NCBI GenBank assembly: GCA_041660815.1
Contig: JBAZVN010000013.1
Span: 6,662 to 70,661, forward strand
From: Gallionellaceae bacterium
GTDB taxonomy: Bacteria > Pseudomonadota > Gammaproteobacteria > Burkholderiales > Gallionellaceae
Direction: 5' to 3'
Length of the DNA: 64,000 nt
This document shows, in pieces, positions 57,833 to 63,636 of the stretch. The stretch's first letter is position 1. Each line of letters starts with the position of its first letter. A program made the translations under genes and the position numbers. The notes under the pieces were generated by a model. The model saw nothing but the letters and a program-made list of their open reading frames with translations. It ran no database searches and was not told the origin of the DNA.

Positions 57833-58321
57833 ATGCTCAAACAATCTTCCAATTTTCGCCCCAACGGTTTCAGCCTGATTGAGTTAATGGCAGTGTTGGT
57901 AATTCTGTCAATTTTGGCTGCAACAGCCATGCCGATGGCGCAGTTAGTGGCCAAGCGCGGCAAAGAGCAAGAGTTACGTCACGATTTGCGGCAGATGCGA
58001 GATGCGATTGATGCGTATAAGCGCGCTTGGGATGAGGGGCGCATTACCCGAAAAGTAGGGGAGACAGGTTATCCGCCCACGCTGGATATTCTGGCCAAAG
58101 GTGTCGAAGATATTCGCGATCCCAAGAAAACTAAAATCTATTTTTTACGCCGTATTCCAACCGACCCGATGGCAGGCAAAGGCTTGGTCGAGGCGGAAAG
58201 CTGGAAAACGCGCAGTTACCTCAGTCCGCCTGACGAGCCAAAATCCGGTGAAGATGTATATGACGTTCTTTCGAGAAGCGAAGACGTTGGCTTGAATGGG
58301 ATTCCCTATAAAAAATGGTAG
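57833..58321 (+). CDS. GspG-like pseudopilin (second divergent copy)
   Basis: MLKQSSNFRPNG/FSLIELMAVLVILSILAATAMP is followed by ELRHDLRQMRDAIDAYKRAWDEG...YPPTLDIL and RIPTDPM. I prefer the ATG at 57833 to the TTG at 57818. Confidence 0.75.
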   Translation: MLKQSSNFRPNGFSLIELMAVLVILSILAATAMPMAQLVAKRGKEQELRHDLRQMRDAIDAYKRAWDEGRITRKVGETGYPPTLDILAKGVEDIRDPKKTKIYFLRRIPTDPMAGKGLVEAESWKTRSYLSPPDEPKSGEDVYDVLSRSEDVGLNGIPYKKW

Positions 58322-59178
58322 CACTGCGAGCAATTTTATTAGTTGGATTGCTATGTTTAATTCCGATAAACGGTTACGCCGGGAGTATTGCTTTTCGGCT
58401 TGATTTAGCCGGCCCGGTTTTAACCCTGACGCACTTGGGCGACAGTTCGGCTTTTTATCCTATGGTTTTCAGAATGCTCCCTGATGGCCGGTGGGAGTCT
58501 TTATCCTCTGCTGAAAAAACAAAAAATCCGGCTGAAATGACTCCCGGTACGCGCTTGGATTGGAATTGGTCAGTGCGTCCGGCGCATGAAAAATTCTCTG
58601 AAATTTCGCGTATTCAACCGATGATGGTGCGTTTTTTCGATCAGGCGGGTGTGAGCTTTGGGCAGATTTCTTTTTTTCAACAGCCGCCCGTGGCGCAAGT
58701 GAATTTGCATACGCAATATAGGGATGCTGAATTGCAGATTTCCGCTCCGCAAAATTCCTCGGTGCTTCAGGCTTCCTGGCTGTTGTGGCCGCAGGAAGAG
58801 GGCATAAGCAGTATTGATCGGGCAGTTAATTTCACCCAGCAACAGCCTGACGCGGCCTTTTTTGACTGGAAAAATAGTGAATTAAAACAGTATGTTGCGA
58901 CTGGACTTGGACAGCCTGCAGCGGTGTTGCTGCATCAAACGCCGCAGGGTTACCGCATTCAATTTATTCAGGGCGGAGGATTGCAGGGGCGACAGCAACG
59001 CTCGGCTTGGCTGGTGGCGGGAAGCTGGTTTTATGGATTGGGAGTAAGTTTGGCGGTGATGGCGACTGTGCTATTTTTGTTTGCACGGTTTATGCGGAAG
59101 CCGCTTCAATCTCAATCCCAAACGCTTCCGTTAAATTTGAAAAATCGGGTGCGTAAAAATAAAAGGGGCAAGCGCTGA
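58315..59178 (+). CDS. Hypothetical exported protein with a C-terminal membrane anchor
   Basis: The signal peptide is MVALRAILLVGLLCLIPINGYAG. The C-terminal TM is WLVAGSWFYGLGVSLAVMATVLFLF, followed by a basic tail. The gene is coupled on both sides (ATGGTAG and TGATG overlaps). Confidence 0.6.
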   Translation: MVALRAILLVGLLCLIPINGYAGSIAFRLDLAGPVLTLTHLGDSSAFYPMVFRMLPDGRWESLSSAEKTKNPAEMTPGTRLDWNWSVRPAHEKFSEISRIQPMMVRFFDQAGVSFGQISFFQQPPVAQVNLHTQYRDAELQISAPQNSSVLQASWLLWPQEEGISSIDRAVNFTQQQPDAAFFDWKNSELKQYVATGLGQPAAVLLHQTPQGYRIQFIQGGGLQGRQQRSAWLVAGSWFYGLGVSLAVMATVLFLFARFMRKPLQSQSQTLPLNLKNRVRKNKRGKR

Positions 59179-63253: not shown

Positions 63254-63255
63254 TT

Positions 63256-63636
63256 ATGCTTGCTCTGGCGCGGCAATTTACAAAATATGCCGGTGTCGGC
63301 GTGGTTTCAGCTATCGGGCATTATGGTTTATTAATCGGTTTGGTTCAGGGGCTGGCGGTTGATGCGGTACTAGCTTCCACGGCGGGCGCTTTTCTCGGGG
63401 CGTGGATTAATTATTCGTTAAATTACCGCTATACTTTCCGTAGTAACAAACGTCATTCAAGTACCGTTGCCAAGTTCGCCTTGATCGCAGTGGTTGGGTT
63501 GGTGTTTAATGCGGCTTTGATGTGGCTGGGTACGCGAGAGCTACAGTTGCATTATTTGTTGAGCCAGATTATTACCACGATATGCGTACTTTTTTGGAAT
63601 TTTGCAGGAAATCGTTATTGGACTTTTCGCCATTGA
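63256..63636 (+). CDS. GtrA-family membrane protein
   Basis: 126 aa with four TM helices, an N-terminal FTKYAGVGVVSAIGHYGLL and the C-terminal family motif FWNFAGNRYWTFRH. Confidence 0.8.
   Translation: MLALARQFTKYAGVGVVSAIGHYGLLIGLVQGLAVDAVLASTAGAFLGAWINYSLNYRYTFRSNKRHSSTVAKFALIAVVGLVFNAALMWLGTRELQLHYLLSQIITTICVLFWNFAGNRYWTFRH

Follow-up and report, generated by a model that had tools for sequence, protein, structure and literature searches.

In streptococci, GtrB/PgtC2 and Pgf modify disordered regions that are rich in Ser/Thr by means of a GT-C glycosyltransferase of the YfhO family (PMC11092751). Pseudomonas aeruginosa strains that belong to group IV possess a pilin arabinosyltransferase, TfpW (bioRxiv 10.1101/2020.04.19.049825), and in Caldicellulosiruptor bescii the GT39 enzyme Cbes_1864, which is encoded near CelA, glycosylates Thr/Pro-rich linkers and so protects from proteolysis (PMC6151902). 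Profile searches have also linked the Pfam family PF10131, among others, to the TMTC proteins' membrane domain (PMC7801869). Here we describe a locus with a PF10131 protein, a seven-gene unit that begins at position 57833 of a 64,000-nucleotide stretch of DNA from a Gallionellaceae bacterium (GenBank assembly GCA_041660815.1, contig JBAZVN010000013.1, positions 6,662 to 70,661 of the forward strand; the whole stretch is called the window below). We propose, with a probability of roughly 60%, that this unit is a three-component, lipid-carrier-dependent system for periplasmic protein O-glycosylation that acts on Thr/Ser-rich tracts of exported proteins.

A sequence-only reading of this DNA had described a unit of seven genes ending in a canonical gspG, and both points hold. 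All seven open reading frames (ORFs) lie tightly packed on the + strand, at the following coordinates (aa, amino acids; pLDDT, predicted local distance difference test):

57833-58321, + strand: GspG-like atypical pseudopilin, 162 aa, the first gene of the unit (N_methyl 7.6e-8; TIGR01710 40 bits, below the cut-off)
58315-59178, + strand: 287-aa protein, without a Pfam or NCBIfam match (AlphaFold pLDDT 83)
59178-61877, + strand: predicted GT-C glycosyltransferase, 899 aa (PF10131, 'PTPS_related', 59.9 bits, 2.3e-16; C-terminal TPR)
61949-62902, + strand: predicted GtrB-type GT2 glycosyltransferase, 317 aa (PF00535 3e-30; PDB 5ekp 3.7e-58)
62936-63253, + strand: Lys-rich secreted protein, 105 aa, with a signal peptide and no family in Pfam or NCBIfam
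63256-63636, + strand: GtrA-family membrane protein, 126 aa (PF04138 2e-24)
63663-64000, + strand: gspG, canonical major pseudopilin, cut by the window end (TIGR01710 111 bits, trusted cut-off 88.85; PF08334 1e-19)

The TIGR01710 score of gspG comes from the 112 residues that lie inside the window. The first two junctions of the unit are overlaps of 7 and 1 nt, and the remaining ones are gaps of 71, 33, 2 and 26 nt, the last of these separating gtrA from gspG. Our scan for promoters and terminators gave nothing above shuffled expectation: there were 13 terminator-like matches in the scanned region against 10.5 expected from shuffles, and none of them stands out. Because the junctions are short and no terminator-like match rises above that expectation, a single operon is the simplest reading consistent with the unit.

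The assignment of the 899-aa protein draws on its family and its modelled fold. In a Pfam scan at E <= 0.01 it matched PF10131 over residues 82-484, well above the gathering score of 26.4 bits, and PF10131 is a member of the Pfam GT-C clan, CL0111 (PMC7801869). We compared its AlphaFold model (pLDDT 81, predicted template modelling score 0.84; built on 50 homologues) with the PDB using Foldseek, and the top five matches were all GT-C enzymes: AftD (two entries, 1e-6), DPY19 (2e-4), ArnT (3e-4) and AftA (1e-3), with AglB and ALG9 ranking lower. Searches of the PDB by sequence, both with the single sequence and with a profile of 50 sequences, matched the TPR domain alone, so that the assignment rests on Pfam and the fold. 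On this basis the protein is a putative GT-C glycosyltransferase.

In the model, a transmembrane bundle (residues 1-395) is followed by a beta-rich domain (396-670), a transmembrane helix (672-694), a basic linker, a further transmembrane helix (751-777) and the TPR domain (780-895). The linker is disordered and Arg-rich and is placed in the cytoplasm; the TPR domain matches the periplasmic TPR of YbgF/CpoB by fold and by sequence profile (YbgF 2.4e-6). The N-terminus is basic and would lie inside by the positive-inside rule, and because of this and the model we take loop 1, the beta domain and the TPR domain to be probably periplasmic. Residue D47, in the motif PTGGD, lies just after the first transmembrane helix and ahead of the first juxtamembrane helix in the model, and is the candidate catalytic Asp. 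Across 50 close and 18 distant homologues, the latter down to 35% identity and drawn from Methylococcales, Chromatiales, Desulfobulbaceae and Magnetococcales, the strictly invariant positions are T44-G45-G46-D47, E74, K107, W155-G156-G157-N158, E166, N263-D264 and R337, together with a long motif of the periplasmic domain (EH..., GSTR, VLEGLYME, PSSPL). In other words, T44-D47, E74, E166, D264, K107 and R337 are kept from Burkholderiales to Magnetococcales.

Among the candidates that were scored, 432 homologues of the 899-aa protein were found at E <= 0.001. The best 120 of the 432 are about 53-72% identical to it and, where the organism is named, mostly betaproteobacterial; the closest relatives among the matches listed are betaproteobacterial as well, at 63-71% identity. 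Named homologues carry the label '6-pyruvoyl-tetrahydropterin synthase-related', and our literature searches found no functional study of PF10131 or of its family name. The closest metagenomic relative (63% identity; locus L080, 5218-7462) has two GT2 genes after the GT-C gene instead of one, which may point to a disaccharide, or to a different donor, in some lineages.

The 317-aa protein matches the GtrB structure of Synechocystis (5ekp, sll0501) over its full length (residues 10-315, 3.7e-58), and ArnC more weakly (1e-31 to 1e-38). Its sequence holds the motifs DDGSSD and DAD and two C-terminal hydrophobic helices at about residues 235-300. The best NCBIfam match is streptococcal PgfS (1.9e-62), at 211 bits and thus below the equivalog cut-off of 500, and every other NCBIfam match also falls below its equivalog cut-off. 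Homology thus points to a GtrB-type polyprenyl-phosphate glycosyltransferase with a cytoplasmic GT-A domain and two C-terminal transmembrane helices. An ArnC/ArnT assignment was rejected on score (ArnC 133 bits, cut-off 529) and on context, and family scans of the window from 25.9 to 64 kb found no other arn-type family. The 126-aa GtrA protein, in which PF04138 covers residues 10-124 (2e-24), is a predicted four-helix membrane protein and presumably a flippase or helper for the lipid-linked sugar. The sequence-only reading had seen here the logic of a GtrA protein, a GtrB-like enzyme and a polytopic terminal transferase, and had looked to a GT-C fold and a catalytic acidic loop in the latter. 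The first is borne out by PF04138, by PF00535 with 5ekp and by the GT-C fold; as for the second, the fold comparison did return a GT-C fold, and the invariant D47 stands at the start of loop 1.

A further component emerged from the gene in front of the GT-C gene, which is translationally coupled to it in the window. Its 287-aa product has a signal peptide, two periplasmic beta-sandwiches resembling immunoglobulin (Ig) or fibronectin type III (FnIII) domains, a C-terminal transmembrane anchor and a basic tail, according to the AlphaFold model, and contains no Ser/Thr tract. Foldseek matches of the model are generic tandem FnIII/Ig-like proteins only, with low template modelling scores, and therefore allow no functional inference for the protein. 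At 50% identity, 1.84 billion representatives hold 82 clusters of this small family, and all of its named members are 'hypothetical'. As called in public data (P0121), the protein has 234 aa and begins 53 codons late; homologues favour the 287-aa form with its signal peptide.

We collected 79 loci with the GT-C gene from a scan of one genome per species, taking flanks of 10 kb; the loci are numbered with the prefix L. A recurring core, which we call the module, consists of gtrA (found within the flanks in 26 of the 79 loci), the 287-aa gene (54), the GT-C gene (79) and gtrB (41). In all 54 of its loci the 287-aa gene directly precedes the GT-C gene. In L052 (9116-12490, 1124 aa) and L076 (9095-12415, 1106 aa) a protein of the 287-aa type is fused to the N-terminus of the GT-C protein, and clusters P0267 and P0289 of the representative library likewise hold a domain of this type at the N-terminus of a protein of about 1100 aa. 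Because of this upstream position and these fusions we read the 287-aa protein as a partner of the GT-C enzyme, that is, a subunit or adaptor, and not as its substrate. The Lys-rich 105-aa protein is not conserved with the module, its sole relative being one weak match in L041. Orthologues of the 162-aa pseudopilin occur in L017, L073, L041 and L042, at 48-66% identity.

The module was said to be embedded between pseudopilin genes, and this association recurs elsewhere. Using a regular expression for prepilins which, like the Ser/Thr threshold below, is a heuristic of our own, we found prepilin genes in 29 of the 79 loci and prepilin or machine genes in 32. Of the 25 loci that are flanked by 8 kb or more on each side, 18 carry type IV filament genes no further than 10 kb away. 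As a rule, the prepilin gene closest to the module is within 2 kb of it. Across Beta- and Gammaproteobacteria there are at least six distinct arrangements of the module with filament genes, including the following:

eight Oxalobacteraceae-type loci: gtrA and a canonical gspGHIJKLM-D operon in divergent orientation (in L008, gspD, L, K, I and H exceed NCBIfam cut-offs)
L017 and L073: layout as in the window
L041 and L042: GT-C gene and partner gene among gspG, gspF and gspE
L011 and L029: gspE-F-G a few kb distant
L034, L048, L052, L062 and L076: minor-pilin sets of the ComP/GspH/PilW/PilX type directly upstream; in L045/L046 such sets lie downstream of the GT-C gene

A second and sharper association is with proteins that contain mucin-like poly-Thr/Ser tracts. 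The ORFs that we counted were 100 codons or longer and had 18 or more Ser/Thr in 25 residues. Within 2 kb of the module there are 13.6 of them per 100 kb, about tenfold more than further out, where the density is 1.8 at 2-4 kb, 1.1 at 4-6 kb, 1.2 at 6-8 kb and 0 beyond 8 kb. This decay with distance is an internal control, free of outside estimates. Such an ORF lies within 2 kb of the module in 33 of the 79 loci, and in 20 of the 37 with 3 kb or more on each side. No other neighbour is as specific to the module family as poly-Thr/Ser proteins.

These neighbours are of three kinds. PilV-like minor pilins are encoded directly beside the GT-C gene in L034, L043, L045, L046, L048, L052, L055, L057, L062 and L076; they have a normal prepilin N-terminus, a pilin head, 40-100 residues of nearly pure Ser/Thr and a small Cys-containing C-terminal domain, and TIGR02523 (PilV) was the best match in all eight that were compared with it. 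A second kind, with genes immediately behind gtrB, is esterases of the poly(3-hydroxybutyrate) (PHB) depolymerase family (PF10503), in which a Thr-rich linker is combined with a substrate-binding domain that contains Cys. Finally, poly-Thr lipoproteins of 530-1000 aa, which combine Ala-rich regions with a poly-Thr tract and a Cys-rich end, occur in L017, L031, L035, L041, L042, L044 and L068, their genes lying either just upstream of the 287-aa gene or after gtrB.

For example, L008 (379-17739) comes from Paucimonas lemoignei DSM 7445 and reads gspD...gspG (divergent and canonical), gtrA, the 287-aa gene, the GT-C gene, gtrB and two depolymerase genes. The product of the first is 100% identical to polyhydroxyalkanoate (PHA) depolymerase B (UniProt P72206), and the second scores as an extracellular type-1 short-chain-length PHA depolymerase. 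Thr-rich linkers are present in both. The glycosylated P. lemoignei forms are, we presume, depolymerases A and B. A passage of PMC4624153, citing Nakayama 1985 and Briese, refers to P. lemoignei PHB depolymerases as glycosylated and to the glycosylation as thought to protect against heat and proteases, and a passage of PMC11893044, citing Briese 1994, treats these depolymerases as the textbook case of a Thr-rich linker. A literature search combining P. lemoignei and glycosyltransferase returned no report of an enzyme that glycosylates them. The module is an obvious candidate.

In the window itself, two proteins encoded upstream of the unit bear on the question of the acceptor:

43359-48686, + strand: 1775-aa secreted protein with a poly-Thr tract at residues 660-684 (nt 45336-45410)
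48688-49038, + strand: 116-aa lipoprotein, matching the Cys domain at the C-terminus of the L017 poly-Thr lipoprotein (751 aa) with 41% identity over 76 aa (E 4e-8)

The tract of the 1775-aa protein reads TTTTTATTSTTTVDSTTTTTLLPNT, has 18 Ser/Thr in its 25 residues, and is the only one in the 64-kb window to reach at least 18. It follows just after a conserved tandem domain of 200 aa (residues 454-651, nt ~44718-45311) in which 'GWxLxG...GFWVN' appears twice and which has no Pfam match. Paralogues of the tandem domain, in several ORFs, stand beside the GT-C gene in 10 loci, including L017, L035, L042, L044, L060, L067, L068 and L073, and the domain may mark clients of the secretion or glycosylation system. 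The 1775-aa protein is the most likely acceptor in the window. The C-terminal tail of the secretin, with a maximum of 14 Ser/Thr in 25 residues, is a possible but weaker, secondary candidate. The four pseudopilin-type proteins of the window reach only 4-7. No Ser/Thr-rich extension was found in GspG or in the atypical pseudopilins beside the module, either in the window or in the related loci, and the GspG proteins beside the module elsewhere are ordinary in length and sequence.

Between the 116-aa lipoprotein and the unit lie the genes of a filament machine:

49143-50351, + strand: GspF/PilC-type platform protein (PF00482 4e-47; TIGR02120 254 bits, below the cut-off)
50650-57704, - strand: divergent machine genes (Pfam T2SSE 1e-126, Secretin 2e-39, PilO, PilN)
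50650-52341, - strand: GspE/PilB-type ATPase with an MshEN domain (2.8e-8); PilB and GspE scores about equal, both below the cut-off
52356-52868, - strand: 170-aa pseudopilin-like protein (orf170) with a degenerate prepilin-like N-terminus
52862-53260, - strand: 132-aa GspG-like prepilin
53250-55280, - strand: secretin with an N-terminal lipoprotein/TPR-like extension of ~200 aa and a C-terminal tail of ~90 aa rich in Ser, Thr, Pro and Gln

The minus-strand set as a whole encodes a 262-aa protein, a PilN/GspL-like and a PilO/GspM-like protein, a protein in the PilP position, the secretin, the 132-aa and 170-aa proteins and the ATPase. The MshEN domain of MshE-type ATPases binds cyclic di-GMP. 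None of the machine genes reaches an NCBIfam equivalog cut-off for the type II secretion system (T2SS) or type IVa pili, and for this reason we regard the machine as a divergent, predicted type IV filament/T2SS-like system. The genes of the 132-aa and 170-aa proteins, between those of the secretin and the ATPase, are both kept in L041, L042 and L073. They had been missed in the sequence-only reading, whose inventory of pseudopilins was right about the two genes that flank the module.

Housekeeping genes stop at panC (32724), and the flank between panC and the machine encodes a Slam-like outer-membrane protein, an NHL/Fn3 protein and two giant secreted proteins, one of 1883 aa and the other of 1775 aa. 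The Slam-like gene (PF04575 SlipAM plus TPR; 36082-37581, + strand) is directly upstream of that of the 1883-aa protein (37644-43295, + strand), which has a FecR domain, a long (KQEA)n repeat at residues ~215-320 and about ten 'VTVTD-ATLAEL' repeats of ~50 aa. These two may form a Slam-type surface-display pair, which is a matter apart from the glycosylation question.

In the mechanism that we propose, we infer the donor sugar, the acceptor, the coupling to secretion and the order of events; its framework is the gene content, folds, conserved residues, fusions and conserved neighbourhoods observed above. Judging from its full-length homology to GtrB, the 317-aa enzyme would use a nucleotide sugar to attach a monosaccharide to undecaprenyl phosphate on the cytoplasmic side of the membrane, and GtrA, by its family membership, would help the lipid-linked sugar to reach the periplasmic face. 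There the GT-C enzyme, probably together with its Ig-like anchored partner, would transfer the sugar to Ser/Thr residues in long, mucin-like Thr/Ser-rich tracts, with its periplasmic TPR and beta-rich domains holding the protein substrate. The clients would thus receive their sugars in the periplasm, before the neighbouring T2SS/type IV filament machine secretes or displays them, and the module would be located inside the filament/T2SS-like cluster because its clients are exported or displayed by that machine.

The sequence-only reading had named as possible targets the pseudopilus and the Thr/Ser-rich secreted proteins encoded nearby. If the pseudopilus were the target, GspG or the atypical pseudopilins would receive sugar from the GT-C enzyme while in the periplasm or inner membrane, ahead of their assembly or in the course of it. 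Pseudopilin genes do flank the module, gspG follows gtrA after 26 nt, and the adjacency of these two genes is kept, in divergent orientation, in the eight Oxalobacteraceae-type loci; in at least 10 other loci the Ser/Thr-rich neighbour is itself a prepilin, and TfpW offers a precedent for a GT-C enzyme with a TPR domain that acts on a pilin. However, no pseudopilin of the window exceeds 7 Ser/Thr in any 25 residues, the adjoining GspG is of ordinary length and sequence, and in many loci the module stands with depolymerases or lipoproteins and no pilin nearby; nor did our literature search bring up a title or abstract that reports a glycosylated T2SS pseudopilin. We therefore found no support for the pseudopilus as target and consider it unlikely. 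Pilin glycosylation is plausible for the module family, because the neighbours are PilV-type in some lineages; it is not indicated for the window. A glycan acceptor would mean that the sugar is added to O-antigen, lipid A/core, a periplasmic glucan or exopolysaccharide, and that the secretion genes are incidental or regulatory. GtrA with GtrB is the hallmark of O-antigen glucosylation, the GT2 enzyme also resembles ArnC (1e-31 to 1e-38), ArnT is among the structural matches of the GT-C enzyme, and enzymes that share one GT-C fold differ widely in their acceptors. Yet gene scans of the window from 25.9 to 64 kb revealed no O-antigen, arn or polysaccharide-export family, the 317-aa protein is far below the ArnC equivalog cut-off (133 against 529 bits), and a transferase with a periplasmic TPR domain and an Ig-like partner has features of protein recognition. 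Since it would also leave the sharp, distance-dependent enrichment of poly-Thr/Ser ORFs unexplained, we regard a glycan acceptor as improbable. Least probable by far is that the 287-aa anchored protein is itself the substrate, in a self-contained glycoprotein module. No gene accompanies the GT-C gene more constantly (54 of 79 loci), and the two are translationally coupled, as such a module would have it, but the product is a compact, well-folded protein of two domains with no Ser/Thr tract, its fusion to the GT-C N-terminus in several genomes is typical of a subunit, and it is missing from more distant module-bearing loci that keep the Ser/Thr-rich pilins. We rejected it as a substrate because of the fusions.

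Several observations weigh against protein O-glycosylation of Thr/Ser-rich tracts as the function of the unit, or against parts of that proposal. GtrA/GtrB systems classically modify glycans, not proteins, and we draw the acceptor assignment from gene neighbourhood alone. The sole strong Thr tract of the window is 9 kb upstream of the module, and the 116-aa lipoprotein lacks the Ala-rich and poly-Thr regions, whereas the version found in the closest relatives has a poly-Thr tract. Of the loci with at least 3 kb on both sides, 17 of 37 have no Ser/Thr-tract ORF within 2 kb at the threshold used, and among the 25 flanked by 8 kb or more on each side, 7 lack any filament gene out to 10 kb; neither link is therefore obligatory. 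The prepilin density of 9.5 per 100 kb in the flanks has to be read against a whole-genome background of roughly 15-25 prepilin genes in the 4-5 Mb of a proteobacterial genome. Because related genomes share ancestry, the locus counts also overstate the number of independent events; despite this shared ancestry, the six or more arrangements and the three unrelated classes of client argue for repeated selection. Of the two targets named at the outset, the Thr/Ser-rich secreted proteins fit better, in that poly-Thr/Ser ORFs are the most specific neighbours of the module, with the distance of the window's own tract as the part that does not fit. It is more likely that the module in the window serves the giant secreted protein than the pseudopilus, and the evidence for this is weaker here than for the family.

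Our analysis gives the PF10131 family a testable role as the terminal transferase of a protein O-glycosylation pathway, and adds to it a previously unnamed partner protein and predicted substrates. It also ties periplasmic glycosylation to type II secretion and type IV filament systems, a link of which we found no description. If the proposal is true, it names the enzymes behind a decades-old observation, the glycoprotein nature of the P. lemoignei PHB depolymerases, and predicts that PilV-like 'mucin pilins', a heavily glycosylated and so far unrecognised class, exist in Methylococcales, Chromatiales, Zoogloea and Rhodoferax. P. lemoignei DSM 7445 is a culturable organism in which the module lies between the T2SS operon and the depolymerase B gene. 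Elsewhere, linker glycosylation shields secreted polymer-degrading enzymes (PMC6151902), which makes the system relevant to stable PHA depolymerases in heterologous hosts.

How does the system compare with those already described? The streptococcal GtrB/PgtC2 and Pgf systems have the same pairing of a GtrB-type synthase of undecaprenyl-phosphate sugar with a GT-C enzyme whose catalytic loop faces outward, and their acceptors are poly-Ser/Thr tracts of exported proteins, encoded for Pgf in the same cluster. PgfS is the best NCBIfam match of the window's GT2 enzyme, yet at 211 bits against a cut-off of 500. The terminal enzymes differ, being of the YfhO family in streptococci and of PF10131, with no YfhO match in Pfam, in the window; the latter has in addition a large periplasmic beta domain, two more transmembrane helices, a TPR domain and a dedicated Ig-like partner. 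Here the bacterium is Gram-negative, and the module would act in the periplasm and is linked to T2SS/type IV filament genes.

TfpW resembles the 899-aa protein in architecture, with a GT-C membrane domain and a periplasmic C-terminal TPR domain. Its gene adjoins the type IV pilin gene pilA; the module of the window adjoins pseudopilin genes whose products have no Ser/Thr tract, and in at least ten related loci it adjoins the gene of a Ser/Thr-rich PilV-like pilin. TfpW O-links sugars to Ser/Thr, requiring a GtrA-like protein and, in Escherichia coli, the small accessory protein TfpX. The TfpW donor is polyprenyl-phosphate D-arabinofuranose, made by enzymes of the DprE1/DprE2 type, whereas the window encodes a predicted GtrB-type hexose or N-acetylhexosamine synthase, and no DprE1- or DprE2-type family appeared in family scans of the window from 25.9 to 64 kb. 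Loop 1 of TfpW has a DDX motif, where the GT-C enzyme of the window has a single invariant Asp, in TGGD. The target of TfpW is the major pilin, and the neighbours here are pseudopilins, PilV-like minor pilins and exoproteins other than pilins.

The GT39/PMT systems, such as that of C. bescii and the actinobacterial Pmt, also use a GT-C enzyme with a lipid-phospho-sugar, and they modify linkers of secreted multidomain hydrolases, to which the PHB depolymerases with their Thr linkers are the parallel here. They differ in that PMT/GT39 is not PF10131, in their Gram-positive hosts, and in having neither a type II secretion link nor an Ig-like partner. In the eukaryotic O-mannosyltransferases TMTC1-4, too, a GT-C membrane domain is followed by non-cytoplasmic TPR and the acceptors are proteins (PMC7801869). 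These are enzymes of the endoplasmic reticulum that use dolichyl phosphate mannose and have many more TPR, whereas the enzyme of the window has a short YbgF-like TPR domain after two extra transmembrane helices.

The sequence-only reading had likened the unit to the GtrA/GtrB/serotype-specific transferase systems of phages and enterobacteria. That analogy stands for GtrA, for GtrB and for the flow from lipid carrier through flipping to periplasmic transfer by a polytopic enzyme. It fails for the terminal transferase, which is not GtrC-type: the Pfam scan found only PF10131 and TPR, and no PF14264 (Glucos_trans_II). The context is neither a prophage nor an O-antigen locus, and the comparative evidence favours protein acceptors. 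Tentatively, and at somewhat less than even odds, we suggest that the PF10131 GT-C enzyme, its Ig-like partner, GtrB and GtrA constitute a Gram-negative counterpart of mucin-type linker O-glycosylation, dedicated to poly-Thr/Ser tracts of proteins that are secreted by type II systems or displayed by type IV filaments. From GtrB/PgtC2-Pgf, TfpW and GT39/PMT the system of the window is set apart by its GT-C family, its domain architecture, its Ig-like partner and its recurrent linkage to T2SS/type IV filament genes in Proteobacteria.

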